This document shows, in pieces, positions 10,038-61,630 of a stretch of DNA of 64,000 nucleotides. The translations under genes were made by a program, and so were the position numbers. The notes beneath the pieces are model-generated. The model was not told the origin of the DNA. It saw nothing but the letters and a program-made list of their open reading frames with translations, and ran no database searches. Location of the stretch: contig JAPDFW010000092.1 of NCBI GenBank assembly GCA_028826165.1, positions 992,001-1,056,000 of the forward strand, in the 5' to 3' direction. Positions within the stretch are counted from its first letter, which is position 1, and the number at the start of each line of letters is the position of its first letter. The stretch is from Anaeramoeba ignava BMAN (Eukaryota; Protista; Anaeramoebae).

Positions 10038-12116
10038 CTATTTCTTTTTTGGTTTTGGTTTTTGTTTTTGAACTCTTTTTTGTTGTCTTTCTTTCTTTTT
10101 TTGTTGTATTTCTTTTTTCTTTTCTTGGAATTTCTTCTTTAATTCAGCTTTATTCTTTGTTTCTTGTTTTTTGGGTTGTTCTTTTGGTTTTTCTATAAGA
10201 TTGTCTTTTGGTTTGTCTTTTGGTTTTTCTTGTTTATCAACTTCTTGAAGAAGTCCTCTTCTCTTTTCTTTAAGTCTCTTTGTTCTGTTTCTTCTTGCTT
10301 CGGCTTGTTTTAATAAAAGATCCTCTTTTTTTTTTTCAATCTTTGTCTTTACAATGTGTTCCATTAAACTTTTCTTGTTTTTAAATACATTTCCTTTTAC
10401 TTTCATATAAAGCTCGTGATGAAGATGTTTGTCAATTTTGCCTTTTTCTCGATATTTTTTAAGTAATCTTCTTAAAGCTCTAATTCTTCGCATCCATAAA
10501 ATTTTTGTTGGCATTCTTGCCTCTCTTGTTCCTTTTCTCTTACCAAGTCCTGTATGTCTTCCTGTTTATTTTTTGAATTTAAATATTGAATTAAATATTG
10601 AATTATTATTGAATTTAAAAATTGAATTTAAAAATTGAATTTAAAAATTGAATTTAAAAATTGAATTTAAAAATTGAATTTAAAAATTGAATTTAAAAAT
10701 TGAATTTAAAAATTGAATTTAAATATTATTGAATTAAATATTGAATTATTTTTGAATTAAATATTGAATTAAATTATTTTTGAATTAAATTGAATTAAAT
10801 ATTGAATTAAATTATTATTGAATTGAATTGAATTATTTTTGAATTAAATTATTATTGAATTATTATTGAATTATTATTGAATTTAAAAATTGAATTAAAT
10901 TATTATTGAATTGAATTATTTTTGAATTAATTATTGAATTAAATTAATATTGAATTAAATATTGAATTAAATTATTTTTAAATTAAATATTGAATTAAAT
11001 TATTATTGAATTATTATTGAATTATTATTGAATTGAATTATTATTAAATATTGAATTAAATTATTATTAAATTATTATTAAATATTGAATTAAATATTGA
11101 ATTAAATTATTTTTAAATTATTATTAAATTAAATTATTTTTGAATTAAATTATTATTGAATTAAATTATTGAATTATTATTGAATTAAATATTAAATTAA
11201 ATTATTATTAAATTGAATTATTAAATTAAATTATTAATGAATTAAATATTGAATTAAATTATTATTGAATTATTATTGAATTATTTTTGAATTAAGTTAT
11301 TTTTAAATTATTATTGAATTTAAAAATTGAATTTAAAAATTGAATTTAAATATTGAATTATTATTGAATTATATATTGAATAAATATTGAATTAAATTAT
11401 TAAATTAAATTATTATTGAATTATTATTGAATTTAAATATTGAATTGAATTATTATTGAATTATATTATTATTAAATTAAATTATTATTAAATTAAATAT
11501 TGAATTAAATTATTATTGAATTAAATATTGAATTAAATTATTATTAAATTAAATTAATAATGAATTAAATTAATAATGAATTAAATTATTATTAAATTGA
11601 ATTATTTTTGAATTATTATTGAATTATTTTTGAATTATTATTAAATTGAATTATTGAATTAAGTTATTTTTAAATTGAATTATATTTAAATTATATTATT
11701 AAATTAAATTATTATTGAATTAAATTATTATTGAATTAAATTATTATTAAATTAAATTATTTTTGAATTAAATATTGAATTGAATTATTTTTGAATTAAA
11801 TATTGAATTAAATTATTATTAAATTAAATTATTATTGAATTAAATATTGAATTAAATTATTTTTAAATTGAATTATATTTAAATTATATTTAAAATTACC
11901 TTTTCTTTTAGCAATAAGTCTTGCACGAACTCTTGCTCTAGAATGAATTTTAACAGGTTTTTTGACAATTAATCCATCTCGATACATCTTTCTAATACTT
12001 TGTCTTGTATTGGCTAATGATAATGTTGATATTTCATTTGGATCTAACCATACTCTTCTTTTTCCAACTCCTAAAACAGAAGATGCTAATCTTTTTTGTA
12101 ATTTTAATGATGCCAT
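10038..12116 (-). CDS. RPL19: 60S ribosomal protein L19 (eL19); exons 12116-11900 and 10561-10038
   Basis: [28 protein letters not shown]...KRKG|[38 protein letters not shown]. Intron 11899-10562 is GTAATT...AACAG. Confidence 0.97.
10562..11899 (-). repeat. 1.34-kb RPL19 intron made of degenerate TTGAATTAAA/TTATTA repeats
   Basis: Continuous low-complexity repeat bounded by GT and AG on the minus strand. Confidence 0.9.
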
Positions 12117-16553: not shown

Positions 16554-16712
16554 TTTTGATTTAAAAAAAGGAAAAAAAATGAAAAATGAAAAAATAAAAA
16601 AATAAAAAAATAAATAAAAAGGAGAAAAAAAATAAAAATTAATTTTCGCAATTCTTTCAATTCATTTTCCTTTTTTTTAAATCATTTTTCAATCATTTTT
16701 CTTTTAGAATTG

Positions 16713-19630: not shown

Positions 19631-19785
19631 AAGAAAATTTTTAAAATTACAAAAAGAGAATTCTAATTAAATAATGATTTCTTTTCCTTTTCCTTTTTCT
19701 TTTAAAAAATTTAATAAACATCAATAAAACAATTAAATTATTTTTTTTCTTTTTTATTTAAAATCTAAATCAAGAAAAAATTTTT

Positions 19786-22720
19786 TTAAATAATTCCTTC
19801 AATTATTTCATTTCTATTTTGATTTCTTTGAGTAAAGTTTCTGAATTCTTGAAAAAAATGGAATAAAATTAATATTATTAAAATAATTGAATATATTATC
19901 ATTAAATCAAAAAGTTCTACAATAGGACCTGTTCCTTCATCATTAAAAATTGAAATTCCCCAAATTAATGCTAAAGAACTAATTGAAACTTCTAATAATA
20001 GTAATAATAATGAAAAAATATAATTTTTTAAAAATATAATTGAGTATATTATTGGAATTATTAATGTTCCAGTTTTTCCAATAAACATTAAAAATGCACT
20101 AAATATTGGATATAAATTCCAACTTGTAATTCCAACTTCTCCTGGTGTAACATCAACATTCCAATCTAATGCTTGTTTTCCAAGAAATAAATCTGAATAT
20201 AAAATATAATCTAAATAATATATAGATAATATTTGTATTAATTGTAATCTTTTTGTTTGTTCATTTCATTAATTTGTGTTTTTCCAAATTTGGAAATAAA
20301 AAATCTAAATTGAATATTGATTAAAATTGCTCTTGGATTACAATTTTGAAGAATAAAAATCATCCAACATAATGCTTCAACTCCTATTTTTGTATCTTTT
20401 TTTATAAAACTTGTTATCATTATTCCAAAAATTATTGAATAAAATCCAAATGCAAAAATATGGAAATCAAATAAAAAATAAAACCAATTAATATCTTGAG
20501 TTATAAAAAATAAAATTATAAAAATATGAAGAATTAAAACAATTATTGTTTCTTTGTTTTGTTTCAATTTAGTTTGGGATTTTTGAATAATTTCCATTTG
20601 ATGTTCTGGTTCATTTCGAAATAGATAAATGATGAATGATATTATGATTAATCCGATTTTTTGGTAAATTGAAGGTGAAAATGGATCAAAAATATTGATA
20701 AACAAAATAATAGCACTTAATAATTCAATTTTGAGAATTGGAAACTTGTAAGTTGGTTCAATTTTTATCAATATTAAGCTTAATAATAAATTTGATAATG
20801 GAAAAAATAATTTTTGATTTATAAAATATTCTTTAAATTGCCACCAAACTGTTAATAAAGGCCAAAATGTCCAAATTAATGTGAAAGTTTCAATTATTAA
20901 ATTTTCATAATTTAATATCAATAAAATTAATGAAATTGAAACACATAATATAATTAAAAAAATCATATCAAATAGATAATTTTGTTTAAAAGGAGAAGAA
21001 AGTATTGCTCGATATAAACTTGCAATTCTTGATAATGTTTCAACAGATGATGATTGTAAAAATTGATCAAATTCATTTTGATTTTGATGAGGATAATAAA
21101 AATTAGGTTCAATTTCTTTCTCATAATAATTTGCAACATTTTTAAGTTGTATAATATTTCTCATTAATTCAATTTTATATTCATCTTCTAAATTTCTTGA
21201 AATATATGAATTTCCAATTTTCCCAAATGAAAAAAATGGGATATCAACTGATTTAAGAAAAGATGTTAAAGTTGCTGTTATATCAACATCTTTGATTTGT
21301 ATCCATTTTTGATATTGGAAATCTGGATGATAAAATAAGAAAAATCCAATATTTTTTGTTGGAAGTGTTTGTGATTCTCCATGGAATTGAGATAAGCTAT
21401 CACCATGATCTGAAGATAAAATAAGTAAATAATCAGGATTTTCTTTAATGAAATTAATAAGTGTATCTTTTTTAAAAAGTTCTACAATTGAATTATCCAA
21501 AAAATTGAGTCTTTCAGTTTCAGTATCGTGTGCTTCATGATCAAAGATACTTGAATACATTATTAAACTTTGATTTTTAGATCTAACATCTTTTAATTTT
21601 TGATTAAGAATAATAGGATCTTGAATTTCAGGATAAATGTAAGGATAACAATCTTGATCTTTAATAATTTCAATTTCATCAAAAAGATGATTTATTTTCT
21701 CTTTTCCACCTAATACTGTAAGTAATGGCCATTCAGTTCCAACAAATTTCAATTTAAAGTTTGGATTTTGATTTTGATTTTGATTTTTATTTTCTAATTG
21801 ATTTTGATTTTGATTTTGAATTTGATTTTGATTTTGATTTTGATTTGAACAACTTTTTGAAGCTCTATTTATTGCTTGAAATAAATTATCACCATTAATT
21901 GTAGTTGCAAAATAATTTGTTGGAGGCATTCCTAATTATTTTATTAAATATAATTTTGATTTTTATTTTGAATTTGAATTTGAATTTGATTTTGATTTTG
22001 ATTTTGATTTTGATTTTAATTTTGATTTTGATTTTGATTTTAATTTTGATTTTGATTTTGATTTTGATTTTGATTTTAATTTTGATTTTGAATTTGATTT
22101 TGATTTTGATTTTGATTTTGATTTTAATTTTGATTTTGATTTTGAATTTGAATTTGAATTTGAATTTGATTTTAAATTTGATTTTAATTTTGATTTTGAT
22201 TTTGATTTTGATTTTAAATTTGAATTTGATTTAGATTTAGATTTAGATTTAGATTTAGATTTAGATTTAGATTTAGATTTTGATTTTGATTTTGATTTTG
22301 ATTTTGATTTTGATTTTTGATTTAGATTTTAATTTTGATTTTAAATTTAAATTTCTACCAGTCCACCAACATGAAAAAATAGCATGAGACCATTTTAAAC
22401 CAGAAACAGAAACTGTGAATATAATTGAATGATCTTCATAAGTTGGTAAAATCCTTTTCAAACCTTTTATAAGGATAAGAATCAATAATAAACCAAATAA
22501 ATTTATCAAATTGATGAGAAAGTGATTTAGAACAAGCAAAATGAGAAGAATTACAAGCACATAAATTATTAATATTTTGATTTGTTGGTGGAATTCCTTG
22601 ATTCATAAAATTATTATATTTATCTAAACATCTAAAAAATATTAACATTTGAATCAATAAAATACAAACTAAAAGTAATATTTTCTTTGGATTATTAAAA
22701 GTTTCTTCAAATTTTCGCAT
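19786..22720 (-). CDS. GPI ethanolamine-phosphate transferase-like protein, copy B (inverted paralogue); exons 22720-22359 and 21931-19786, with two homopolymer frameshifts (about 22456 and about 20252)
   Basis: Near-identical to copy A over long tracts and shares the intron position (GTAGAA...TTAG). Versus copy A it has +1 A at TGAAAAGG and -1 A at ACAAAAAG. Confidence 0.72.
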
Positions 22721-22845
22721 TTTATTTATTAAAATTAAAGTTAAAATTATAATTAAATTAAAAAATGAAAAAATGAAAAAAAAATTAATTTCATTTTTCC
22801 ATTTCTTGTTATATTTTCTTTATCAACAAAAAATTATTAAAAAAT

Positions 22846-35687: not shown

Positions 35688-36683
35688 TCAATTATTTTTT
35701 GCTTTTAAATTTGAATCAAATTTAGAAACTGTTAATTCATCATCAGAAATAATATAATTATAAACAACAGGATATTTTCCACCAAAACCAAATGCAAGTA
35801 AACTAAATGAAGGTTTAATATTAGAATTCATTAATGTTTGAGCTCCAGTTATACTTCCTGGATCTATTAAAAGTGTTTCTTCAAATATTTCAGTATTTAA
35901 TTTATGTGTATTTCCTTTAATAAGAATATCTAAATTATTTTCTGTTATTAATTCTTGTAAATTTGTTTTATCTTCTGTTATAAATTGATGTCCATGAATC
36001 ATTCCTATTTTATATCCTCCAATTTTTGTTTGATAAAATTCTGGAAATTGAAGTTTTTCCTTTTTTAATTTTGATTTAAATTTTGAATTTGAATTTGAAT
36101 TTATTTTGATTTTGATTTTGATTTTGGTTTTAATTTTGATTTTAATTTTGAATTTTAATTTTTAATTTTGATTTAAATTTTGAATTTGAATTTGATTTTG
36201 ATTTTAATTTAATTTTAATTTTAATTTTGAATTTTGAATTTTGAATTTTGAATTTTAATTTTAATTTTGGATTTGATTTTAATTTTAATTTTAATTTTAT
36301 TTTTAATTTTAATTTTAATTTTAATTTTAATTTTAATTTTAATTTTAATTTTAATTTTAATTTTAATTTTGAATTTTGAATTTGAATTTTAATTTTGATT
36401 TTGATTTTGAATTTTAATTTTGAATTTAATTTTAATTTTTAAATTTTGAATTTAATTTTGATTTTGATTTTGAATTAAATACATCATCAGAATCACCAGC
36501 AACACAAAAAACGTTTTTAGGTGTAATAGTTTCAAAATATTCAAGAATTTTGGGATCTGTTAAATTTCCTGTACATAAAGTTGTTTGAATTTTTCCTGGA
36601 GTAAAAAGTTTTGTAAACTTTTCTGGAATTTGTTTTGCTCTATTTGGAATAAAAATATCACCAATAATAAGAACAAGTGTCAT
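35688..36683 (-). CDS. VPS29: Retromer subunit VPS29 (divergent); exons 36683-36483 and 36059-35688
   Basis: LVLIIGDIFIPNRA..IPEKFTKLFTPGKIQTTLCTGNL...VAGDSD|...IGMIHGHQ...DILIKGNTHK...IDPGSITGA...PSFSLL. Confidence 0.92.
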
Positions 36684-41848: not shown

Positions 41849-44412
41849 TTATTTATATTTTTCAATCCATTCTAAATATTTTCCCATTTCTTTTCCTCTT
41901 TCTTTTTTCTTTTCTATTTTCAAAATTTGAAGAAAATCTGAAAATTGAATTTTTGGTAATTGTAATGAATCTTTTGGAATATCTTTTAATTCAATTTTTA
42001 TTGCTCCTTCTTCATATTCTTCACAAGGAATATAAAATATTTCTGGTTCATTGCTATTATCATTACTTATTTGTTGAATCTATTTTAATTTTAATTTTGA
42101 TTTTGATTTTGATTTTGATTTTGATTTTGATTTTAATTTTAATTTTGATTTTAATTTTGATTTTAATTTTGATTTTAATTTTGATTTTGATTTTAATTAA
42201 TAAATTTTAATTTTGAATTTGATTTTAATTTTGATTTTAATTTTAATTTTGGTTTTGATTTTGAATTTTGATTTTAATTTTAATTTTAATTTTGATTTTG
42301 ATTTTGATTTTGATTTTGATTTTGATTTTAATTTTAATTTTAATTTTAATTAGATTGTTACTTTTTTAAAATATTTGGAATTTTGAATTTTTTGGATTGG
42401 AATCGTAAAAACTTTTTTAAAAAGATCTTTTATTTCTAATGGTGTAAAATCATTTGTGTTTTCTGCTAATAATTGTATTTCTTCTACTTTAAGATTTAAA
42501 TTTAATTCTTTTAACAAATTTTGGATCATTTGAAATCTATCATTTTCTTGAGGTAAAGGAAAAAATTGTTTTCGAAATCTTTTTATATTGAATAGAATTT
42601 TGAATTGAATTTTTGAATTTTGAATTGAATTTTGAATTGAATTTTGAATTGAATTTTGAATTGAATTTTGAATAAATTGAATTGAATATTGAATTGAATT
42701 TTGAATTGAATTTTGAATTGAATATTGAATTGAATTTTGAATTGAATTTTGAATTGAATTTTGAATTGAATTTTGAATTGAATTTTGAATTGAATATTGA
42801 ATTGAATATTGAATTGAATATTGAATTGAATATTGAATTGAATATTGAATTGAATTTTGAATTGAATTTTGAATTGAATTTTGAATTGAATATTGAATAT
42901 TGAATTGAAATTGAATTGAATTTTGAATTGAATTTTGAATTGAATATTGAATTGAATTTTGAATTGAATTTTGAATTGAATTTTGAATTGAATTTTGAAT
43001 TGGATATTGAATTGAATTTTGAATTGAATTTTGAATTGAATTTTGAATTGAATTTTGAATTGAATTTTGAATTGAATATTGAATTGAATTTTGAATTGAA
43101 TTTTGAATTTTAAATTGAATTGAATTTTGAATTGAATTTTGAATTGAATTTTAGAATTTTGAATTGAATTTTGAATTGAATTTTGAATTGAATTTTGAAT
43201 TGAATTTTGAATTGAATATTGAATTGAATTGAATTTTGAATTGAATATTGAATTGAATTTTGAATTGAATTTTGGATTGAATTTTGAATTGAATTTTGAA
43301 TTGAATATTGAAATTTAAATCAAAAAATAACCTTTTAAGAATAACTTGATCAATTTCCCAAGGATTTTCTGATGTTCCAATAACAAAAAGATCTTGAAAT
43401 TGTCGACTGTTTTCTAATTGAATCAAAAGTTCAGTTTTTAATCTTCGATTAGATTCACCTTCTCCATAATTATTGGAACAAAATAATTCAATTTCTTCAA
43501 AACAAATTAAAGCTGGTAAATAATCTTGCGCTGTTTCAAATATATATCGCAAAATTTTTTCTGCTTCTCCACACCATTGTGAGAAAAAACTGCATGTAGA
43601 TACTAAAAATAAAGATAGATGATATTCTGCTGCCAAAGCTGAACATAATGCTTTCTTTCCTACTCCATATGTCTGTGTATTGTTAATAATCCATTTAATT
43701 GTTTTTGATTAAAAAAATAATCAATCAAATCTTGTTTGAGTAATTGATTTAAATTAATACTCCTGAAAAAATGATATAATTATTTATATTATGTCTTTTG
43801 CAAAATTGAGGGAATTTTAGTGGAATAATTATTATTTCCTTCATTAATTGTTTTACTTCTTCTAATCCAACAATTTCATCTAATGTAATTATTGGTGATG
43901 TATAAAGGTATTTTTCAATAGCTAAATGTATTTTTTGCTAAAATTTGTTTTTTTATAAAATCCAAAATCCAAATTTTAAATTGATTATAAATTTTTTTTT
44001 TCTAATATACTTTTTGTGCACTTGGTCTTTGAATTTTGTTAGAAAAATAATTATTTGTTTGATTTGTTTGATTTGTTTGATTTGTTTGATTTGTTTGTTG
44101 AATGTTTTGAATTTTTTTGATTTGTTTGATTCTTTGAAGAATTAAATTCAAAATTGATTTTGCATTTTCTTTCTTTTTTTCATCACTATTTGCTTTTTAA
44201 ATTTTTTGAATTAAAATTTTTTGAATTAAAATTTTTTGAATTAAAATTTTTTGAATTGAATTTAATTGAGATTTTTTACTTGAATTTTTTATTATTTCAT
44301 ATAATTTTTTTGCAACATTTGTTAATAATTTAATTGCTTCTTCATAATTTTTTAATTTTTCTAATTCAATTGCTTTTTGAATTGTTTGATAAAAAAATTC
44401 TTTTGAATTCAT
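41849..44412 (-). CDS. VPS4-like MIT-AAA protein with degenerate catalytic motifs, 5 exons
   Basis: MIT-like N-terminus (IQKAIELEKLKNYEEAIKLL); ITLDEIVGLEEVKQLMKEIIIIPLKFPQF; SQWCGEAEK; GEGESNRRLKTELLIQ; VPS4 beta-domain-like IPCEEYEEGAIKIEL. A frameshift occurs near 44200. Confidence 0.8.
42580..43330 (-). repeat. Intron of the VPS4-like gene made of 12-bp (GAATTGAATTTT)n repeats
   Basis: Near-perfect dodecamer array; it produces the spurious NFEL-repeat ORFs. Confidence 0.9.
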
Positions 44413-46664: not shown

Positions 46665-47650
46665 AAAAAAAATGAAAATAGATTTAATTTAATATTTAAT
46701 TTATAAATTAATTTAAAAATATAATTTAATATTTAATTTTATTATTAAAATAATAATTTAATGTTTTAGATTTAAATATTTTATTATTTAAATATTTAAC
46801 ATATAAATATAAAAAATGAAAATAGATTTAATTTAATATTTAATTTAGAAATTAATTTAAAAATATAATTTAATATTTAATTTTATGTCTAAAATAATAA
46901 TTTAATGTTTTAGATTTAAATATTTTATTATCTAAATATTTAACATATAAATATAAAAATGAGAATAGATTTAATTTAATATTTAATTTATAAATTAATT
47001 TAAAAATATAATTTAATATTTAATTTTATTATTTGAAAAATAATAATTTATTGTTTCAGATTTAAATATTTTATTATTTAAATATTTAACATATAAATAT
47101 AAAAATGAAAATAGATTTAATTTAATATTTAATTTATAAATTAATTTAAAAATATAATTTAATATTTAATTTTATTATTAAATTAATAATTTAATGTTTT
47201 TAGATTTAAATATTTTATTATTTAAATATTTAACATAAAAATATAAAAATGAAAATAGATTTAATTTAATATTCAATTTATAATTTAATTTAAAAATATA
47301 ATTTATTATTTAGTTTTATTATTAAAAATAATAATTTATTGTTTTAGATTTAAATATTTTATTATTTAAAATATTTAACATATAAATATAAAAAATGAGA
47401 ATTGATTTAATTTAATATTTAATTTAGAAATTAATTTAAAAATATAATTTAATATTTAATTTTATTATTAAAATAATAATTTAATGTTTTAGATTTAAAT
47501 ATTTTATTATTTAAATATTTAACATATAAATATAAAAAATGAGAATAGATTTAATTTAATATTTAATTTATAAATTAATTTATAAATTAATTTAATATTT
47601 AATTTTATTATTAAAATAATAATTTATTGTTTTAGATTTAAATATTTAGT
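46665..47650. repeat. Satellite array A-left: about 144-bp unit, about 7 copies
   Basis: The unit marker AAATG(A/G)AATAGATTT recurs at about 46678, 46821, 46965, 47111, 47255, 47400 and 47545. Confidence 0.92.
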
Positions 47651-47720
47651 GATTTCGGAACATTTTGAAATTTTATTGTTTTGAAAGCAAAAAAAAAGAA
47701 GAAGAAAAGAAATAATTGTT

Positions 47721-50081
47721 TTAGTTTGATTGTTTTGATTTTGAAATGAAAAAATCTTTGATTTGATCAAGAGAAAAAGAAGGTTTTAAAAGAGATAAGG
47801 AGTTTGCATTTACTAAAATAACTGGATCGAAAGAAAATTGTGAAGTAGTTTCCCAATAATTTTCAGCAGTAATATAAACATAATATTGATTTTGAGGAAG
47901 AACAAATTGGTTTTCTTGACTTTTTTCCTTGAATTCATTCTTTTCTTGATTTTCTTCATTCTTTTCTTGATTTGATAACAAATTGATTTTTTCTGAATCA
48001 AATTTCATTCCAGCTAAATTTGAATAGTATTCCAACAACGAAACTTTCTTTTCTTGAATAGAAAATTCAGATAATGAAAACAAATCATCTACTTTCTTAG
48101 AATGTTGGTTATATTTTTGAACAGAAACTTGAATGTAAAATAATTCCTTTTCATCTTCTTGATTTTTGGATAAACAAACAAAATCTATAACCCAATGATT
48201 TCCAAAACAAACAATAAAATCTCCAACTTCAATTTTTTTTAAAGGTTTTTCTCTTTCTTGATGAATGAAATTTTTAATTTTAATTTCAAAAGATTTTGGA
48301 ATTCCTTTGTTTCCTTTCAAATCAAAATTATCAAGTGTGATTTGAGAATTAATTTGTGAGTGAAATAAATTAAGAACAAATAATTCGAATGCCCACCCTC
48401 TGATATTTAATGAACAGAGAGTTCGAATAAAATTGATTTCTTGAAGTTGAAAAATTTGAATAATTGCTTCTTTCACAAATTCACAAATAGGAAGAATCTT
48501 TTTTTTCTTTTGAAATTTCCTAAAATTTGCATTTAGATGAGCATGAGTAGCTTTTTTATTTTCGAAATTCTTTTGATTTCTGTTATTTTCATCTGGAAGT
48601 AAAATATGATAAAATAAACCTGATTTTTCCCAAATTGGAGGTAAAACATTCAAATTATGATTTAGATATACTAGAGTAGGAAATATAATCTGTTGATAGA
48701 AAGAAGAATCGTTTTTGTTTTGAAATATTTTTTCAAGAAAGTATTCAATTCTTGTTTGATAAAAATCAATACTATTTGACACACATTGATAAGTAAAGTC
48801 ATTTGTTGTTTGATCATAATCTTTCCAATTTTGATAAGTTAATGATACAATATCCAGCATTTGAGGAACTTGATTCGTAAATTTTTGAAAAGTTTTAATT
48901 GAATTTTTTTGAGGAAGTTTTCTTTCTTTTTGTTTCCATTTACAAATCGAATTAAATTCAAATTTATTATAAAATCTAATTTCTGTTCCATAAAGTAATA
49001 AATTTAAATCAGGAATTTTATGATGATCAAAACTTGAACTCAGAGCAACTAGAAGCATTCCATTTCTGATTGAAGGGAAGTATCTAAAAACATTCAAAAT
49101 ATGATTAATATCAAATTTCTCTCGATAAAGGATATTAAATTCATCAATCGCAATCAAAATTCGAAATTTGTGAGTTTTTAAGTAGAATAAATTTTGTAAA
49201 AAATTTCTACAACTTTCAATAATTTCTTCTTTCATTTCAGTTGTGAATTTGGTTGAAAAGAATAAATCTTCTTCGAAATCAAATTTACATGTTTGAAATA
49301 ATTTCTTTCCATATCTGTGAAACAAATCTTCCATAATCCTCTTTGCAACATAAAAACTGGATTCATTAATCAAACTATTTAAATCGTTTAAATATAAAAC
49401 AACCCATTTTTCCTGTTTTTTTCCATAAGTTTTTGTTCTTTTTTGCTTTTCTTCTTTTTGATCAGAAATTAAATTGATATTTTCTTTTTCATCAACTTGA
49501 AATTGATGAAATCTATCTTGATTTGAATGTATTAGTTTTTTTTCATCCATTTCATTTGTGTGATTTTTTGAATTTGATTTTGAATTTTGATTCCTTTTAA
49601 TCTTTTCCTGTTTTTTCCAATTTGGCTTGTCATTTCCATCAAAATCGAAAGAAAAATAAAAATAAAAATAAAAAGAAAAATTAGTAAATGTTTTTTTGTA
49701 AGTTTGATTTATCAAATAATTGATTTGTGAAAAAACCTTTGATACATGAAATTGAGAGAAATATGCTGCTATATGATAGAGTGTATAGGATTTTCCTGCT
49801 CCATTTGATCCATATAGAACTTGTTTTCTTGAAATTCCTTTTTTGATTTTTTTGATTAAATTTTGAGTTTGTTTTCGAATCAAAATTGCTGATAATTTTC
49901 CTTGTTTTTCAAAATTGATATTTGATTCTTCCCAATCAAAAATATTAGAAGGTATTCCACCAATTTTGTTCACATTTTCTGGTTTTGTATGTAAATCTAA
50001 TGGTATTTCTTCTAATTCTTTTTCCATTTCTTCTTTAGTTACAATTCTTTTTGGTTTTTCTTTCTGATTTGATTTTGACAT
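47721..50081 (-). CDS. P-loop NTPase + C-terminal PD-(D/E)xK restriction-endonuclease-like protein (Crinkler/RHS-type NTPase-REase architecture)
   Basis: First ATG at 50081 (MSKSNQ). Walker A VLYGSNGAGKS, Walker B ILIAIDEFN, C-terminal RGWAFELFV...NHWVIDFV...LFYIQVS. Confidence 0.65.
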   Translation of the reverse strand: MSKSNQKEKPKRIVTKEEMEKELEEIPLDLHTKPENVNKIGGIPSNIFDWEESNINFEKQGKLSAILIRKQTQNLIKKIKKGISRKQVLYGSNGAGKSYTLYHIAAYFSQFHVSKVFSQINYLINQTYKKTFTNFSFYFYFYFSFDFDGNDKPNWKKQEKIKRNQNSKSNSKNHTNEMDEKKLIHSNQDRFHQFQVDEKENINLISDQKEEKQKRTKTYGKKQEKWVVLYLNDLNSLINESSFYVAKRIMEDLFHRYGKKLFQTCKFDFEEDLFFSTKFTTEMKEEIIESCRNFLQNLFYLKTHKFRILIAIDEFNILYREKFDINHILNVFRYFPSIRNGMLLVALSSSFDHHKIPDLNLLLYGTEIRFYNKFEFNSICKWKQKERKLPQKNSIKTFQKFTNQVPQMLDIVSLTYQNWKDYDQTTNDFTYQCVSNSIDFYQTRIEYFLEKIFQNKNDSSFYQQIIFPTLVYLNHNLNVLPPIWEKSGLFYHILLPDENNRNQKNFENKKATHAHLNANFRKFQKKKKILPICEFVKEAIIQIFQLQEINFIRTLCSLNIRGWAFELFVLNLFHSQINSQITLDNFDLKGNKGIPKSFEIKIKNFIHQEREKPLKKIEVGDFIVCFGNHWVIDFVCLSKNQEDEKELFYIQVSVQKYNQHSKKVDDLFSLSEFSIQEKKVSLLEYYSNLAGMKFDSEKINLLSNQEKNEENQEKNEFKEKSQENQFVLPQNQYYVYITAENYWETTSQFSFDPVILVNANSLSLLKPSFSLDQIKDFFISKSKQSN

Positions 50082-50229
50082 TAAAAAAAATAAAAGAATG
50101 AGAAATAAAATGAAAAAAAAAATTTTTTTTGAATTTTCTTTTAAAGATCTCAACTTCTTGTTTTTGGAAATTTTTTGATTTTTTTTTTTGAAAATGACAT
50201 TGACATTTTGATCTTTATTAATGAAATAA

Positions 50230-51075
50230 AAAAAAATGAAAATATATTTAATTTAATATTTAATTTATAAATTAATTTAAAAATATAATTTAATATTTAA
50301 TTTTATTATTAAAATAATAATTTAATGTTTTAGATTTAAATATTTTATTATTTAAATATTTAACATATAAATATAAAAAATGGGAATAGATTTAATTTAA
50401 TATTTAATTTATAAATTAATTTAAAAATAATATTTAATATTTAATTTTATTATTGAAATAATAATTCAATGTTTTAAATTTAAATATTTTATTATTTAAA
50501 TATTTAAAATATAAATATAAAAATAAGAATAGATTTAATTTAATATTTAATTTATAAATTAATTTAAAAATATAATTTATTATTTAATTTTATTATTAAA
50601 ATAATAATTTAATGTTTTAGATTTAAATATTTTATTATTTAAATATTTAACATATAAATATAAAAATAAGAATAGATTTAATTTAATATTTAATTTATAA
50701 ATTAATTTAAAAATATAATTTAATATTTAATTTTATGTTTAAAATAATAATTTATTGTTTTAGATTTAAATATTTTATTATTTAAATATTAAACATATAA
50801 ATATAAAAATAAGAATAGATTTAATTTAATATTTAATTTATAAATTAATTTAAAAATATAATTTAATATTTAATTTTATTATTAAAATAATAATTTAATG
50901 TTTTAGATTTAAATATTTTATTATTTAAATATTTAACATAAAAATATAAAAATGAGAATAGGTTTAATTTAATATTTAATTTATAATTTAATTTAAAAAT
51001 ATAATTTAATATTTAATTTTATTATTAAAATAATAATTTAATGTTTTAGATTTAAATATTTTATTATTTAAAAAT
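50230..51075. repeat. Satellite array A-right: same about 144-bp unit and same orientation as A-left, about 6 copies
   Basis: The unit marker recurs at about 50242, 50386, 50529, 50672, 50815 and 50958. Confidence 0.92.
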
Positions 51076-51475: not shown

Positions 51476-53188
51476 ATGGATAATAATAATAATAATAACC
51501 AAATTGAAAATGCAAATCAAAATCAAAAATGAAAATGAAAAGAAAAATTTAGAAAAAAAGTAACAAAAATTTAATTAAAGATTATTCAAACCTTTTAAAT
51601 GGAAATTCATTTAAAAGATTTTTCAATTTTTGTTGAGAATAAATCAAATCCTTTTGAAATTAAAGTTCATAAATCAATTTTATCTTCGAGATCTCCTTTT
51701 TAATGAATCATTAAGGCAAGAATCTCTTTCTATTTCTTTAAATCAATTTAATAAAAAGAAATGGAATCAATTTTGAGTTATATTTATTATGGAAATATTT
51801 CTTTTTGAGAATCAAGAAAATCTTATTCAATTATTGGAAATTTCAATTTATTTTAAATTAAATTTATTGAAAGAAATTATTCAAAAAAAATTTTAAATTC
51901 AATTAATTATTCAAATTTTTTCCAATTTTTTTTCCAAAATCGAAATTTAAATTCAAATGAAATTGAAATAAAATGTTTTGAATTAATAAATCAAAATTTT
52001 TCCCAAATTCAGAATAATGAGAATTTATTCAATTTAACTAAAGAAGAGATTATCAAATTTATTCAATTTAAACAAGAAAAAAAAGAAATTTTTCAATTTG
52101 ATTTTTCAATTTTTAAATAATTGGATTGAAAAAGAAATCAAAGATTAAAAGGAAAGAAAGAAAAAGAAAAAGAAAAAGAAAAAGGAATTGAAAAGAAAAG
52201 ATTATTTCATTCTTTTTTTCATTATTTGATAAAGATTCAATTTCAAAACAAGATTTTGATAAATTAAAACAATTTGATTTTTCCTAAATCTTTTTAGTTG
52301 ATATTCAAAACAAAGTTATTCAAGATAATCAAAAAAAATTGAAAACAAAGAAATTGAAGTTGAAGTTGAAAATAAAGAGAAAGAAAATCAACAAATGAAA
52401 ATTGAAATTGAAACAAAGAGAGAAATGGAAGAAATGGAAAGAAATTGATGACGAAAAAACAAAGAAAAAGAGAAAATAAAAAGAAAGAAAATGAAGAAAT
52501 GGAAAAAAAGTTTTTGATAAAATAAAGAAATGAAGATAAAAACAAAGAAATTGAAGAGAAATGGAAGAAAGCAGTCGAGAAAATGAAACCTGTTTTTGAT
52601 GAAATTGAAGAAATGAAAAAACAATTTCAGAGTTTTTGGAATTCAGAAATTATTAAAGAAATTGAATATGTTAAGAAATTACAAGAATGGATAAATGATA
52701 ATGATTTTTTTTCTAAAATGAAAAAAGGATTTTCAGCAAAAAGAGATGGATTTTCTTGTCAAAATTGGCATAAAGCAGTTGATGGGAAAGGAAAAACATT
52801 AGTTATTATCAAAACAAAAGATAATTTTATTTTTGGTGGTTTTACTAAAGTTGGATATAAATATTCACAAAGTGGAGAATACATTAATGATTCAAATGCA
52901 TTTATTTTTTCATTAAGAAATGATAAAGGGGATAGAATACCTGCAAAGTTTACTTGTAAAGAACCTCAATATGCAATTTATTCTCGCTTTAACGATCATG
53001 GTCCAATATTTGGTGATTGTGGAAATGATTTTTGTTTATATTCTAATTTACAACCTGGTTTATCAAATTTTGGTAGAAGTTATAATCTACCTAATGGAAT
53101 TACTCAAGGAACAAATGAAGCTAAAAGTTATTTAGCTGGTTCTTATTCTTCATGGGTTGTTGATGAACTTGAAACTTATTTCATTTAA
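51476..53188 (+). CDS. BTB + coiled-coil + TLDc protein; the 5' two-thirds is broken by many homopolymer indels (unpolished multicopy gene or pseudogene)
   Basis: Frame-corrected KDFSIFVENKSNPFEIKVHKSILSSRSPFF...ILSYIYYGNI (BTB). Intact TLDc: FSAKRDGFSCQNWHKAVDGKGKTLVIIKTKDNFIFGGFT...AFIFSL...GPIFG...ELETYFI*. Confidence 0.8.
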
Positions 53189-53629
53189 AAATTAATTAAT
53201 AATAAGAAAATCAAACTTTTTTTTTTTAATTTTTTTTTTCAAAATTTAATTCAATTTTAATTTACTTTTAATCAAATTAATTTCTTTAAAATAATAAATA
53301 AGAAACAAATTTAATTTTAAATAATTTAATTTTAATTTAAAATATTTATTAAAAATTTAATTAATAAAAATAATCCAAAAAAAAAATAATAAATTTTAAA
53401 AAATTGAATATTTTTAATATAATAAATAAAAATAAAAATTGAAAATAGAAATTAATAATAATTAAATTTAAATTCATTAATTAAAATATTAAAATAAAAA
53501 AATCAAATAAAATTTATTATTAATTAATATTTAAATATTAATAAATTATAATCAAAATCAAAAATAGAATAATTAGTAAATTATTTTTAGAAAGTTTATC
53601 TTATTCAATCATGTTAAATTCAATTTATT

Positions 53630-56600
53630 TAAAAATTTTTAATTTTTATTTTTATTTTTAATATATTTTATTATAATTAAAATTGAATAATAAATAATCA
53701 AAAATATTAATATAATAAATAAAAATATTATATCAAATTAAATTAAAATAAATTTAAATTAAATTATTATTAAATATTATTAAAATTAAATATATATCTT
53801 TATTAAAATATTTTATTCCACTTTTTTAATATATTTTATTATAATTAAAATTAGAATAATAAATAATTAAAAATATTAATATAATAAATAAAAATATTAA
53901 ATCAAATTAAAATAAAATAAATTTAAATTAAATTATTATTAAATATTATTAAAATTAAATATATATATTTATTAAAATATTTATTCCACTTTTTAATATA
54001 TTTTATTATAATTAAAATTGAAATAATAAATAATTAAAAATATTAATATAATAAATAAAAATATTATATTAAATTAAATTAAAATAAATTTTAAATTAAA
54101 TTATTATTAAATATTAAAATTAAATATTTATCTTTATTAAAATATTTTTATTCCACATTTTTAATATATTTTATTATAATTAAAATTGAATAATAAATAA
54201 TTAAAAATATTAATATAATAAATAAAAACATTATTTCAATTTAAAATAAAATAAATTTAAATTAAATTCAAATTAATTATTATTAAAATTAAATATTTAT
54301 CTTTATTAAAAATATTTATTCCACTTTTTAATTTATTTTTATTATAATTAAAATTGGAATAATAAATAATCAAAAATATTAATATAATAAATAAAAATAT
54401 TATATTAAATTAAATTAAAATAAATTTAAAATAAATTATTATTAAATATTATTAAAATTAAATATTTATATTTTTATTAAAATATTTATTCCACTTTTTA
54501 ATATATTTTATTATAATTAAAATTGGAATAATAAATAATTAAAAATATTAATATAATAAATAAAAATATTATATTAAATTAAAAATAAAATAAATTTAAA
54601 TTAAATTATTAATTATTATTAAAATTAAATATTTATTTTTATTAAAATATTTATTCCACTTTTTAATATATTTTATTATAATTAAAATTGGAATAATAAA
54701 TAATTAAAAATATTAATATAATAAATAAAAATATTATTTAAATTTAAAATAAAAATAAATCTAAATTAAATTATTATTAATTATTATTAAAATTAAATAT
54801 TTATATTTATTAAAATATTTATTCCACTTTTTTTAATATATTTTATTATAATTAAAATTGAAATAATAAATAATCAAAAATATTAATATAATAAATAAAA
54901 ATATTATTTTAATTTAAAAATAAAATAAATTTTAAATTAAATTATTATTAAATATTATTAAAATTAAATATATATTTTATTAAAATATTTATTCCACTTT
55001 TTAATATATTTTATTATAATTAAAATTAGAATAATAAATAATTAAAAATATTAATATAATAAATAAAAATATTATATAAAATTAAAATAAAATAAATTTA
55101 AATTAAATTATTAATTATTATTAAAATTAATTACTTATCTTTATTAAAATATTTATTCCACTTTTTAATATATTTTATTATAATTAAAATTGAAATAATA
55201 AATAATCAAAAATAATTAATATAATAAATGAAAATATTAAATCAAATTAAAATAAAATAAATCTAAATTAAATTATTAAATATTATTAAAATTAAATATA
55301 AATTAAAATTTTTAATATATATTTTATTATAATTAAAATTGGAATAATAAATAATTAAAAAAATATTAATATAATAAATAAAAATAATAAATAAAATTAA
55401 AATAAAATAATTTTAAATTAAATTATTATTAAATATTATTAAAATTAATTATTTATATTTATTAAAATATTTATTCAACTTTTTAATATATTTTATTATA
55501 ATTAAAATTGAAATAATAAATAATTAAAAATAATTTAATAAATAGGAACATTATTTCAATTTAAATTAAAATAAAATAAATTTAAATTAAATTCAAATTA
55601 ATTATTATTAAAATTAAATATTTATATTTATTAAAATATTTATTCAACTTTTTAATATTTTATTATAATTAAAATTGAAATAATAAATAATTAAAAATAT
55701 TAATATAATAAATAAAAACATTATTTTAATTTAAAATAAAATAAATTTAAATTAAATTATTATTAAATATTATTAAAATTAAATATATATCTTTATTAAA
55801 ATATTTATTCCACTTTTTAATATATTTTATTATAATTAAAATTGAAATAATAAATAATTAAAAATATTAATAAAATAAAAATAATTATTTTAATTTAAAA
55901 TAAAATAAATTTAAATTATTATTAAATATTATTAAAATTAAATATTTATATTTAAATTTATTCAACTTTTTAATATATTTTATTATAATTAAAATTGAAA
56001 TAATAAATAATTAAAAATATTAATATAATAAATAAAAATATTATTTTAAATTAAAATAAAATAAAATCTAAATTAAATTATTATTAATTATTATTAAAAT
56101 TAAATATATATTTTTTATTAAAATATTTATTCCACTTTTTAATATATTTTATTATAATTAAAATTAGAATAATAAATAATTAAAAATATTAATATAATAA
56201 ATAAAAATATTAAATTAAATTAAAATAAAATAAATTTTAAATTAAATTATTATTAATTATTATTAAAATTAAATATATATCTTTATTAAAATATTTATTC
56301 CACTTTTTAATTTATTTTATTATAATTAAAATTGGAATAATAAATAATCAAAAATATTAATATAATAAATAAAAACATTATTTCAATTTAAAATAAAATA
56401 AATCTAAATTAAATTATTATTAATTATTATTAAAATTAATTATTTATCTTTATTAAAATATTTATTCCACTTTTTAATATATTTTATTATAATTAAAATT
56501 GAAATAATAAATAATCAAAAATATTAATATAAATAAATAAAAATAATAAATCAAATTAAATTAAAATAAATTTAAATTAAATTCAAATTAATTATTATTA

Positions 56601-57288
56601 AAATTAATTATTTATCTTTATTAAAATATTTATTCCACTTTTTAATATATTTTATTATAATTAAAATTGGAATAATAAATAATTAAAAATATTAATATAA
56701 TAAATAAAAATATTATTTTAATTTAAAATAAAATAAATTTAAATTAAATTCAAATTAATTATTATTAAAATTAATTATTTATCTTTTATTAAAATATTTA
56801 TTCCACTTTTTTTAATATATTTTATTATAATTAAAATTGAAATAATAAATAATTAATATAATAAATTTAAATTAAAATAAAATAAATCTAAATTAAATTC
56901 AAATTAAATATTATTAAAATTAATTATTTATCTTTATTAAAATATTTATTCCAATTTTTTTAATATATTTTATTATAATTAAAATTGAAATAATAAATAA
57001 TTAAAAATATTAATATAATAAATAAAAACATTATATTAAATTAAAATAAAATAAATTTAAATTAAATTATTATTAAATATTATTAAAATTAATTATTTAT
57101 CTTTATTAAAATATTTATTCCACTTTTTTTAATATATTTTATTATAATTAAAATTGAAATAATAAATAATCAAAAATATTAATTTAATAAATAAAAATAA
57201 TATTTTAATTTAAAATAAAATAAATTTAAATTAAATTATTGTTAAATATTATTAAAATTAATTATTTATATTTATTAAAATATTTATA
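53630..57288. repeat. Satellite array B: about 167-bp unit, about 22 copies
   Basis: The marker TATTCCACTTTT recurs at about 53816, 53984, 54151, 54319, 54489, 54654, 54822, 54992, 55156 and onward to about 57120. Confidence 0.93.
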
Positions 57289-57453
57289 GGTGATATTAAG
57301 TTAGATTCTAATTTACAACCTGGTCAATCAAATTTTGGTCTTAGTTATAATTTACCTAATGGAATTACTTATGAATCAAATGAAGCTGAAAGTTATTTAG
57401 CTGGTTCTTATTCTTCATGGGTTGTTGATGAAGTTGAAACTTATTTCATTTAA
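57289..57453 (+). pseudogene. Orphan variant copy of the last 54 codons of the TLDc domain (possible alternative terminal exon or displaced C-terminus)
   Basis: GDIKLDSNLQPGQSNFGLSYNLPNGITYESNEAESYLAGSYSSWVVDEVETYFI* aligns without gaps to 53024-53188. Confidence 0.9.
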
Positions 57454-57627
57454 AAATTAATTAAAACAAATTAAAAAACAAAAGAAAGAATTTTCTCATC
57501 TAATAAATTACTTTTATTAAGAAACCTTTTCAGTTTTTACTTTTTACTTTTCATTTGATATTGATTTAAAAATCAAACGAAATTATGAGAAAAAAAAACA
57601 AAAACAAAAACAGGAACAAAAAAAAAG

Positions 57628-59457
57628 TTATTGTTCCAATTCATCTAATTTCTTGCAAATTTCATCAAAAGTGGGTCTTTGTTTTGGATCATAAGACCAA
57701 CATTGGTACATTATTTGGAGGATTTCTTGAGGAGCGATATTTTCGGAAATTCTTTTTGGTTTTGAATTTTTGGAAAGAATTTGGTGTTTCAAATCAAAAC
57801 CAGGAATCGTAGTTAATTCTTCACGAAAAGGTAAATCACGTGCGATAATTTCCCACAAGAGAATACCATAAGAATAAACATCAATTTTGGATGAGTAGTT
57901 TGTGTCTCCTCTGAGGATTTCTGGAGCCATCCAAAGATATGTTCCAACGTTAGTTGTCATTTCTTTTTCTAGTTTTGAATCATCTGGTCCATATCGAGCT
58001 AATCCAAAATCTGCTATTTTTAATCTGTTGTCGTTTGTTACTAAAATATTTGATGATTTTAAGTCTCGATGAAGAATGTTTTTTGAGTGAAGATATTTCA
58101 TTGCTGTTGCTATATCTTTTGCATATTGAATTATTGTTTTGGGTTTTAGAACTAGTTTTTTTTGTTTGAGTTTTTGAAGTCTTGAGCGTAAATTTCCTCG
58201 TTGGAGATATTCTAAAGCGATAATTGGAAAGGGGTAATTTTGGTGGAAATCGTAACCGATCATTTTGACGATATTTGGGTGGTCACAAATACTTTTTTGA
58301 ATTTAATTTTATAAATGATTTTAATTTTGAAATAAATTTTAATTTTGATTTTAATTTTAATTTTGATTTTGATTTTGATTTTAATTTCATTTTAATTTTA
58401 ATTTTGATTTTAATTTTGATTTTGATTTGAACTTTGAATTTTGATTTTGATTTTGATTTTGATTTTGATTTTGAATTTTAAATTTTATAAATGAATTTAA
58501 TTTTAATTTTAATTTTGATTTTGATTTTGATTTTGATTTTAATTTTGAATTTAAATTTTAATTTTAATTTTGATTTTAAATTTAATTTTATAAATGAATT
58601 TAATTTTAATTTTAATTTTGATTTTAATTTTAATTTTATAAATGAATTTAATTTTAATTTTAATTTTAATTTTATAAATGAATTAAATTTTAATTTTAAT
58701 TTTAATTTTAATTTTAATTTTGATTTTATAAATTAATTTAATTTGTAAATAAATTTTATAAATAAATATACCCTAAAATCCCAATCTCTCGTTGAAATAA
58801 TTTGAGAGATTTCAATTTAATTTGCTTCAAAGCAACAACAAAATCATTATAAGAAGCTTTATAAACAACAGAATGCTTAGATTTAGTAATAATACCAAGA
58901 ATATTAAGTTTAGAAAGAATAAGTTGAAATTGATATAAATTAGAAGGTAAATCCTCAGCAAAAAGAAAAAACAACGATGGAGAATAATCAGCAAAATGTT
59001 GAGAATAACGAACTAAGAACTTTTTAATGGGAACAGAACCAGTCATTTGAATTGGAAGTTTTTGATTTTTATTTTTAACAAAAGGATTCGGACCAAAAGA
59101 TAAAATAAGTTTAATCAATGAATAATTTCCTGAAGAAACAGCAAAATGAAGGGGGGTATTTAATTTTGTAGAATCAGCAAGATTAGGATCAGCACCCCTT
59201 TTCAAGAGCATTTGCGCCATTTGTTTATTAACTAGTGATATTGCTATGTGAAGTCCGGTATATCCCCCTAAATTCCGTTTATTTGTGTCAATTTTTTCAT
59301 TTAAAATTGTGTGCAATATTTCTGCATCTTGTGTTCCTACTCCTAAATGTATTGCATAATTCCCATCTTCGTCTCGTAATTCGTTTAGATTCGTGTTTTT
59401 GATCCGCTTTTTTAATTCGGAATTGTTTTTTGTTTTGATTAGATTGAAAATAATCAT
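57628..59457 (-). CDS. Ankyrin-repeat tyrosine-kinase-like (TKL) protein kinase; exons 59457-58772 and 58291-57628
   Basis: Ankyrin repeats (GNYAIHL, GYTGLHIA, NTPLHFAV); VVALKQI, ICDHPNIV, HRDLKSSN, KIADFG, GTYLWMAPE, DVYSYG, CWSYDPKQRPTF. Confidence 0.92.
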
Positions 59458-59703
59458 TTTGAATAAAGATAAAAAAATAAAAAAGAAAAAAAAATGAAAG
59501 AAAAAAAATGAAAAAAAAAATTAGGAAAAAAAAGAAGAAAAATAATATTTTTATTTCTAAATTTCTTTTTTATTAATTTTTTTTATTTCTTTCTTAATTT
59601 AAAACTTCATCAAAAAAAAAAAAAGAAAGAAAAAAGAAAAAAGAAAAAAATTTTTTTTTTTAAATTAAAAAATTAAATAATCATTTTTTTCTTTAATAAT
59701 AAA

Positions 59704-61630
59704 ATGATAAAAGAAAAAATCAAACGACAATTTAAAAATCAAAAACAACTTGCAATAGATTTAGGGGAATTTCTTGAAAAAGATAAAACAATGCGAGATT
59801 TTGAAATAATTGTGAGTGAAAAGAAAGAACGAAATCAAAAAGAAATTCAAAAAGAAATTTCACTTAAATGTCACAGTGTAGTACTTTCATCAAGATGTCC
59901 ATTTTTCCAAGAGTATTTCCACAACAACAAGCGAGCGCAATCAATAACACTTGACGAGTTCACACCGACGCCAATGCGTGAGATCTTGAGGTATTTTTAC
60001 ACTGGGGTTTTGGAAATAACACCATCAATTTCGCTGGAGATCCTACTTTTATGCCGACAGTTTTCTCTGCACAACGACCTGGTGGTGTTTGTTAATAACT
60101 ATATCAACGAGCAAATTAACGAGGCGGTTGTTGTGGAGATATACCACTTCGCCAAGTTGAATGATTTCAAGGAACTCGAGAATTTCTGCTTGAAGTTCAT
60201 CACCACACATTTCGAAAACGGCATGATTTCAGGCGATTTTTATCGCTTAACGGATGAGGATTTAAACGCCATTTTGCAGCGAAGTGATCTCCATGTAGAA
60301 AAGGAGGTTGAGTTGTTTTACTTTGTCTTATATTGGGCCGAATCACAGGTTGGGCACAGCGTCGGAGTTTCTCATCTCGAGGAGAAGAACCGCAGCCAGA
60401 TCCACGAAAAGATGATGCCGTTCCTCCCGCTGATTCGTTTCTGCGATATCGACACCGAGGATATTGACCGCATCAGGAAGAAAAAACTTGTTCCAGAAGA
60501 GACTATAACCCAATTGACATCTTATTGTGATTTGCGATTGCGTCATGACAAGTCCGCAATCCACAAGCTCAAAGAAGACATGATCAAGCAGAACAAGTTC
60601 ATGTTTGTTCACCGCCACAAGAAGCCCAAAAGCTCTATATTGCCGCAAAACAAGCAGTTCATCTCGTACTTGATGGAATGGATCGATGATGAGTCGTTTT
60701 TTGCTGATATGGCTCTTTGCTACTCGTCCAAAAAAGACGGTTTAACAGGCGCCGCCTTTCACAACAAATGCGACGGGAAGGGGAAAACACTTGTTCTAAT
60801 TGAGACCACAAAGCACTTCATTTTTGGCGGTTATACACAGATTGGCTGGTCAAAAAATCCTCAAGATTGGTCTTTTAATAACGGAAATTGCGGTTGGATT
60901 GCCGATCCAAATGCGTTTCTTTTTTCGCTCAAGAATTCTTTTCATTTCCGTCCTGAAAAGTTCCCTATTCAATCAGGAAGAGAGAAATGGGCGCTTTTTT
61001 ATGAACCTTCTTACGGCCCAACTTTCGGTGCTGATCTTGAAATGTACTCAAAATCAAGAAGAGCTCTGGATTCAATGAACCGTTTCATCTCTGAATTCGG
61101 TGATTCTTATACTGTTCCTAGTACTATCAGTGCTTACACAAAAAAGGCTTCAAGATTCTTTGGTGGTTCTAGTAATAAATGGAAGATTTTGGAAATGGAA
61201 GTATTTTGTATTAAGTCAATCCAAAAATCAAACTCTGTTGAAATTAATTTGAATCAAAATTTAAGTACAAATCCAAATGCAAATGAAAATCAAAATAAAA
61301 TTGAAAATGAAAATGAAAATCAAAAAGAAAATCAAAATGAAAAAGAAAATCAAAATGAAAATAAAAAAATTGAAAATCAAAATCAAAAATCAAAATCAAA
61401 ATATTTCTCATTCAAGTCCAATTTCTCATTCTTCTTACAACTTAAATCATCATCAACATATACATTTAGATAATCATTCCCAATCAAATAAACTTCATCA
61501 TTCTCATCCAAATCTCAAGCATGATATTCATCCAAATATAAAACAATCAAATCCAAATAAACTTAGATCCAAGAATTTAACAATTGAAAAGATGGAAAAA
61601 AATTCCAAAATTTCAAAAGATTCTAAATGA
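59704..61630 (+). CDS. BTB-BACK-TLDc protein; the end is probably 61630 after an extra A near 61388 (the ORF track stops at 61473)
   Basis: KCHSVVLSSRCPFF, ILRYFYTG, BACK region (LQRSDL.VEKEVELFYFVLYW...PLIRF), TLDc YSSKKDGLTGAAFHNKCDGKGKTLVLI...IFGGYT...AFLFSL...GPTFG...EMEVF. Confidence 0.88.

Follow-up and report, generated by a model that had tools for sequence, protein, structure and literature searches.

The orphan stretch of TLDc coding sequence that follows an AT-rich array in Anaeramoeba ignava BMAN is, in our view, probably the recently cut-off 3′ end of a member of a large BTB-TLDc family, in which sequence exchange would homogenise the framework while selection would diversify a predicted binding surface. 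Taken alone the tip is ordinary debris (or possibly the result of a mis-join), and it exposes this hypervariable family. Judged from the predicted protein sequences, the hypervariable BTB-TLDc repertoire is real at the protein level. The window referred to throughout is the whole stretch analysed, 64,000 nucleotides of contig JAPDFW010000092.1; positions are counted from its first letter, and the features under study are collected in Table 1.

Table 1. Positions of the tip, the neighbouring gene and associated features within the window
Feature	Position	Strand	Description or basis
BTB - coiled coil - TLDc gene, ~570 codons, no intron seen	51476..53188	+	aligns end to end with paralogues P0004-P0027
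TLDc domain of the gene, ~20 family-hypervariable codons	52634..53185	+	AlphaFold2 model, fold comparison, column entropies
Gene stretch homologous to the tip, including 11 nt past the stop	53024..53199	+	codon alignment, blastn
Array B, ~22 head-to-tail units of ~168 bp, 3.5% G+C	53618..57288		unit split, composition
Orphan TLDc tip	57289..57453	+	last 54 codons and stop of a family member; without start codon or upstream coding sequence
3′ tail, 11 nt, common to tip and gene	57454..57464	+	alignment
Distant BTB-BACK-TLDc paralogue, TLDc 36% identical, GC3 0.40	59677..61473	+	outside the young expansion

The neighbouring gene has the BTB-TLDc architecture

The gene preceding the tip starts at the ATG at 51476, and the open reading frame at 52526-53188 is its end; its last 201 amino acids correspond to the called protein P0121. 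The long open reading frames of the window are open in the standard code. Pfam assigned the C-terminal domain to the TLD family (PF07534) with an E value of 1.9e-19 and a score of 70.7 bits, against a curated cut-off of 24.5. An AlphaFold2 model of this domain (pLDDT 92.4) aligned to the TLDc domain of human NCOA7-AS (7obp) with a Z score of 19.8 and an rmsd of 2.3 Å over 159 residues, and Foldseek matched it to 4acj with an E value of 6e-8. Z scores against 11 TLDc entries ranged from 14 to 19.8, and the best unrelated entry reached 4.6.

Frameshift-aware alignment placed approximately 12-17 single-base frame breaks in the gene, all of them within the BTB and coiled-coil part (51476-52535), with the TLDc part free of breaks. 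Twelve were common to two reference alignments, whose totals were 14 and 17 after removal of one start-offset artefact. All 12 shared breaks adjoin A/T runs, and the aligned path contains no in-frame stop. We infer that they are uncorrected long-read errors at places where paralogues are near-identical; A/T runs are common, and real pseudogenisation is the alternative. Among the family records described below, 60 of 188 are shorter than 300 amino acids, and assembly indels may have left a large share of the family under-annotated, or many of its genes may be truly broken.

Differences between tip and gene fall on family-variable codons

A gapless codon alignment of 57289-57453 with 53024-53188 reproduced the pattern recorded in the initial annotation, with 11 replacement codons (gene/tip: N/G, F/I, C/K, Y/D, L/Q, R/L, Q/Y, G/E, T/S, K/E and L/V) and one silent codon (CTA/TTA), an intact reading frame in the tip, and a stop common to both sequences. 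The annotated feature ends at 57466; identity past the stop extended over 11 nt (53189-53199 and 57454-57464) and no further. By blastn, the tip and the gene were 92% identical over 164 nt (57301-57464), and no second copy of the tip was found within the 64-kb window. The 54-amino-acid tip was 81% identical to the end of the gene and gave no Pfam match by itself. Since the first pair, N/G, falls in an indel-rich loop and could be aligned otherwise, 10 differences can safely be counted.

The counts of replacement and silent changes were then compared with neutral expectation. The NG86 method gave Nd 16 over 124 sites and Sd 3 over 38 sites, corresponding to an omega of 1.7 (Fisher p 0.30), and from S53042 onward dN/dS was 0.94. 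One silent codon or fewer was obtained in neutral simulations with a probability of 0.15 under uniform mutation and 0.37 under AT-biased mutation. The 11:1 ratio of replacement to silent codons is thus by itself within chance and not significant.

Neutral simulation gave a different result for the placement of the changes. The 19 base changes were packed into 12 codons (p 2e-4 for uniform and 5e-5 for AT-biased mutation), five of the codons had changed at more than one base (p ~0.015), and a stop was expected in 69-84% of the simulations; none arose in the tip. The changes sat on columns that vary across the family, with a mean entropy of 2.08 bits against 0.79 bits, a value that none of 100000 random draws matched. 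Of the 26 variable columns 10 differed, whereas the 27 near-invariant columns showed no difference at all (Fisher p 2.7e-4), and this concentration bears out the earlier statement that the pattern is not one of neutral decay. At all 27 near-invariant columns the tip carries the modal residue. The same is true of 69 of 101 close paralogues, the other 31% departing at one or more columns, and the lack of decay in the tip is therefore unremarkable for a young remnant.

That the tip arose by partial tandem duplication of the neighbouring gene and then decayed neutrally, as the 92% DNA identity, the 11 bases shared after the stop and the non-significant 11:1 ratio might suggest, is largely refuted and in our judgement extremely improbable: no near-invariant column has changed, each changed residue is an allele found in the family, the clustering into codons and the intact frame depart from the neutral simulations, and other paralogues are closer to the tip.

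The tip belongs to a large family

The family search returned 211 matches at E ≤ 1e-10 out of 326 candidates, and all 120 of those listed were labelled Anaeramoeba ignava, as were 68 of 100 shorter matches. The family analysed here comprises 188 A. ignava records of at least 279. Seven of the 188 lacked a full TLDc domain; the other 181 were kept, and the 101 at ≥72% identity were used for the entropy calculations. Left out of the family statistics were 32 metagenome matches and, for pairwise counts, the extra TLDc copies within P0001 and P0009. The architecture is seen in P0005, which has a BTB domain at residues 40-142 and a TLD domain at residues 402-537.

The gene and the tip differ at 10 of 53 residues, while close paralogues differ from one another at a median of 13 (2850 pairs of 76), with 18% of the pairs at 10 or fewer. 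The records nearest to the tip were P0004 and P0021 (8 differences) and the nearest to the gene was P0010 (5 differences). Seven exact paralogue segments tile the tip, which has no private residue. Its exact parent was not found among the 188 of at least 279 family records, the nearest differing at 8 of 53 residues. The tip is no special derivative of the neighbouring gene, and was likely cut from a different member of the family. Called proteins of 29-95 amino acids resembling the tip were also sought and gave no candidate, in a search that is weak in that such fragments are rarely called.

One further record, P0001 (1281 amino acids), carries a RING domain and a kinase together with a tandem row of five TLDc domains, of which four are identical over the C-terminal part shown. 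This suggests intragenic concerted evolution of the TLDc repeats.

Variation is concentrated in the C-terminal half of the TLDc domain

Among 53 full-length members, the median identity was 0.91 in the BTB domain, 0.99 in the post-BTB segment, 0.63 in the coiled coil, 0.82 in the N-terminal half of TLDc and 0.68 in its C-terminal half. The coiled coil is as divergent as the C-terminal half of TLDc, but it is of low complexity and poorly alignable. Of 161 TLDc columns in the 101 close members, 87 had an entropy below 0.3 bit and 20 had an entropy of at least 2 bits. The high-entropy columns are rich in Y, N, G, S and D. Seven TLDc columns that we examined held 9-18 residue types each, and 26-58% of the residues were two or more base changes away from the modal residue. 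The hypervariation of TLDc described in the initial annotation is therefore site-specific as claimed, and is not peculiar to the pair of gene and tip: the whole paralogue family displays it, and the alleles of the tip are ordinary ones.

In the model, every other residue along predicted C-terminal strands tends to be variable, with invariant residues in between (I125, C134/Y136 and L143), and further variable residues lie in loops; from this alternation we infer that the variable residues may form a single exposed face.

Variants at the sites of the tip were collected from contigs of four public runs at 80% likeness, independently of the polishing of the window, and contig depth was never taken as copy number. 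Among those listed, 39 variant letters fell on the tip, in 17 codons, with 20, 11 and 8 at codon positions 1, 2 and 3, respectively. Five of the 39 listed variants were formally silent; four of these accompany replacements in the same codon and one is independent. Thirteen fourfold codons on the tip had no listed variant, in a list that lacks common replacements as well, such as T/S at 57439, and may miss silent variants alike. In run X5, no listed contig carried the letter that gene and tip have in common at 57413; a contig can attest a letter but cannot attest its absence, and this was given no weight. Codon bias alone was rejected as an explanation for the scarcity of silent changes because approximately 16 of 43 silent differences would be expected at saturation, against the one seen.

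The family tree is star-like, with 84% of its length terminal and a support of at least 0.9 at 7 of 99 nodes. The consistency index was 0.28, and 218 of 325 two-state column pairs contained all four combinations. Linkage between TLDc sites was strong at 1-2 codons (mean z 6.4), and beyond 6 codons the mean z dropped below 1; a correlation between the N-terminal and C-terminal halves of TLDc (rho 0.41) indicates that they retain some shared history. The reshuffled variable sites fit short-tract exchange and recurrent change alike. Recurrent mutation without conversion can suffice for the four-gamete patterns and the homoplasy, and close to the indel loops some of the linkage between adjacent sites comes from the alignment itself.

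Antigenic-variation systems use silent donor cassettes. The tip could be imagined in such a role, as a cassette maintained to convert the variable codons towards the 3′ end of the gene upstream, given that it has the orientation of the gene, lies 4.3 kb downstream of it, is promoterless with its frame intact and covers part of the variable sites, and that the variation of the family looks reshuffled in short tracts. We regard this as quite improbable. Only one such piece is present in the window, it is no closer to the gene than other paralogues are, and the variable sites upstream of codon 167 are absent from it. Moreover, no dedicated cassette is needed, because at least 188 copies are possible donors. 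The tip likely gives rise to no protein, and at most it might serve as a passive conversion donor.

The number of residue types, up to 18 per codon and many of them two or three bases apart, beside almost monomorphic silent sites, together with the significant codon clustering in the gene-tip pair, would also be expected of a targeted mutator that randomises chosen TLDc codons, either by DGR-like reverse transcription or by an unknown codon-directed process. The changed bases were A7/T6/G3/C3 on the gene side and G6/T6/A5/C2 on the tip side, near the base composition and with no adenine bias in either direction; the adenine-specific templated mutagenesis raised in the initial annotation is thus not supported. 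By the genetic code, DGR adenine mutagenesis of AAY codons cannot yield K, E, Q, M or W; these residues make up 19% of those at the hypervariable columns. Codons ending in G or C were not significantly enriched at variable sites (4/38 against 5/131, p 0.12), and no reverse transcriptase family was detected among the 20 open reading frames of the window that were scanned. A mutator of this kind is accordingly a distinctly doubtful source of the variation.

The junction between array B and the tip

Array B breaks off at the tip when a further 168-bp unit is only 2-3 nt long. At the break lies a heptamer, AATATTT, which is common to the array unit and the GPIFG codons of the family; this is suggestive, post hoc, of homology-guided joining at the tip. 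The first residues of the tip, G-D-I-K-L, fit the family pattern GPIFG-G-DIKL (P0188), and the DIKL motif after GPxFG-x is found in P0098, P0174 and P0188. Coding sequence thus explains the AG at the junction, since the start of the tip matches paralogue-type G-G-D-I codons (P0111 and P0188).

This last result weighs against the proposal of an alternative last exon, in which the tip would be joined across array B to a donor inside the TLDc exon of the gene. The TAG acceptor, set in AT-rich sequence, resembles other local acceptors, introns of the window often consist of AT-rich arrays, and in-phase GT sites occur at 53001, 53013 and 53019. These in-phase donors read GTCCAA, GTGATT and GTGGAA, and all seven local donors read by eye start with GTA or GTT. 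Those that keep the TLDc domain whole are GTGATT and GTGGAA; splicing at 53013 (GTGATT) would leave a zero-length FG-D loop, seen in none of the 188 paralogues, and a consensus-like donor at 52956 would remove two predicted strands. With the junction AG explained by the G-G-D-I codons and a stop of its own in the gene, we consider alternative splicing to the tip very improbable.

We also considered a mis-join, in which an intact paralogue truly ends with the tip, its 5′ part having been collapsed or lost as long reads were joined across array B. A published A. ignava assembly was built from Nanopore reads with Pilon polishing (PMC11550330), the 12 shared A/T-run frame breaks of the neighbouring gene suggest poor polishing here, and the tip has not decayed. 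Among the contigs listed, none with few differences spanned the junction of array B and the tip. The junction is nonetheless base-sharp and adjoins the heptamer common to array unit and gene, and in a 917-nt contig of run X2 the final 28 letters of the tip region are connected to the downstream kinase gene, three letters short of the 31-letter rule for bridging. Runs X4 and X5 gave long contigs over the kinase exon and little or no cover from tip to kinase, and such contig gaps carry no evidential weight. On balance a mis-join appears rather unlikely, and if it were true the hypervariability at the level of the family would stand regardless.

At the other end of the tip, contigs of other copies diverge from it at 57455, 57462 and 57464 (among those listed), as the gene does. 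These loose ends, none of them more than about 11 bases past the stop, suggest a sharp common 3′ boundary of a homogenised or mobile unit. A retrocopy, with its 5′ truncation, common 3′ end and lack of an intron, was considered and set aside: inspection by eye showed no target-site duplication, and array sequence is not taken up again beyond the tip. A search for inverted repeats in the 44-64 kb region yielded low-identity AT-rich matches only.

Proposed origin of the tip and significance of the family

The account that we favour, of a family member cut off at its 3′ end, can be set out as follows. The 5′ part of the parent gene would have been lost by deletion or by ectopic recombination ending in array B, beside AATATTT. 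Short-tract gene conversion or recent expansion would homogenise silent and framework sites and reshuffle the variable codons, and diversifying selection would retain novel residues at positions of strands and loops that face outwards. BTB adaptors have an established role as Cullin-3 substrate adaptors. By analogy, the proteins of this family may be Cullin-3 substrate adaptors whose uniform BTB end recruits Cullin-3, and their TLDc domains may bind a variety of targets that are foreign or evolve fast, such as those of prey, symbionts or viruses. A predicted E3-adaptor repertoire is the best reading of the family.

A bolder version can be formulated, in which a directed process rewrites chosen surface codons in BTB-TLDc ubiquitin-ligase adaptors by the hundred, orphan tips next to AT-rich arrays act as donor cassettes, and the outcome is an antibody-like repertoire on the TLDc fold for recognising symbiont, prey or viral proteins within the cell; we hold this to be quite unlikely. 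Under the favoured reading, TLDc, a V-ATPase-binding module in animals and yeast, appears to have been put to a new use on BTB adaptors, as a hypervariable domain for recognition. If true, this would give a free-living anaerobic protist with bacterial symbionts a candidate system of recognition or immunity inside the cell, and would offer a reason besides oxidative-stress tolerance for the TLDc expansions of other microbial eukaryotes.

A literature search, with thin coverage of subscription papers, found no report of TLDc hypervariability, of this family, of Anaeramoeba with TLDc, or of TLDc with BTB and cullin. BTB and TLD are absent from the main text of the A. ignava genome paper, and 11 of its 15 supplements hold nothing relevant; the rest may list the family.

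Other features of the window

Directly upstream of the BTB-TLDc gene (window 46667-51072) lies an uninterrupted open reading frame of 843 codons at 47721-50252 on the minus strand. It encodes a P-loop NTPase with, by eye, a C-terminal restriction-endonuclease-like motif, its look-alikes include clusters of the Crinkler family and of ATPase-nuclease type (0.91-0.98), and it is flanked on either side by arrays of one 143-144 bp unit at 46667-47647 and 50232-51072. We presume that it may be a mobile element of the CR-NTPase/REase type.

Convergent with the tip is an ankyrin and protein kinase gene on the minus strand (57628-59520), which has a hexamer-repeat intron. A contig of run X2 skips 397 bases inside the kinase exon (57690-58088), and possibly comes from a paralogue. 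Introns made up almost wholly of AT-rich tandem repeats were also seen at 10573-11857, 36063-36476 and 42595-43320, for example in an AAA ATPase gene; two of the genes with repeat introns we take to be RPL19-like and Vps29-like.

Two near-identical membrane-protein genes form an inverted pair within 16590-22822, one at 17420-19630 on the plus strand and the other at 20238-21935 and 19786-20265 on the minus strand; neither had a Pfam match at 0.001. At 446-9814, three consecutive long open reading frames on the plus strand (1459, 1188 and 527 codons) overlap at their ends and likewise lacked a Pfam match at 0.001. They are possibly one very large gene with frame breaks.

Comparison with known systems

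The MATH-BTB and F-box adaptors of C. elegans form large families shaped by gene birth and death, in which a conserved Cullin-binding domain is paired with a substrate-binding domain under positive selection, and have been proposed to degrade foreign proteins (PMC4334554). Like these, the A. ignava family is large, with a conserved BTB domain and variation in the ligand-side domain. Unlike them, its variable module is TLDc and not a MATH or F-box-associated domain, and its paralogues look strongly homogenised at silent sites.

A uniform framework combined with a few diversifying codons is also encountered in the WD40 repeats of the HNWD genes of Podospora (het-d/het-e), which undergo concerted evolution and carry a few diversifying codons on the interaction surface (PMC1805685). 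There, an intragenic repeat in an NLR has four selected codons, whereas the A. ignava proteins are adaptor-like and have approximately 20 variable codons in a single globular domain, in genes spread over many contigs. In the finTRIMs of teleosts (RING/B-box - B30.2), near-identical N-terminal ligase modules are joined to a positively selected C-terminal binding domain, and dozens of dispersed, clustered genes are virus-induced (PMC2657112). The likeness to the A. ignava family lies in the uniform N-terminus and the variable C-terminal domain; the domains themselves differ.

Canonical TLDc proteins are present in few copies. The A. ignava family shares their fold, and differs in having at least 188 copies and a hypervariable C-terminal half. 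NCOA7, OXR1/Oxr1p, mEAK-7, TBC1D24 and Rtc5p, the canonical members, are V-ATPase binders (PMC9263379). When three of the eight named contacts of mEAK-7 were placed on our alignment, G276 fell on an invariant glycine, and P316 and Q317 fell in a hypervariable loop.

The BTB-TLDc architecture is itself widespread, with clusters of BTB-(BACK)-TLDc proteins in arthropods, Mucoromycota and Evosea. Expansions of TLDc in Paramecium bursaria and Tetrahymena utriculariae have been read as an adaptation for oxidative-stress tolerance, and site-specific hypervariability goes unmentioned in the available part of that report (PMC11834939). An expansion of TLDc is common to these ciliates and A. ignava.
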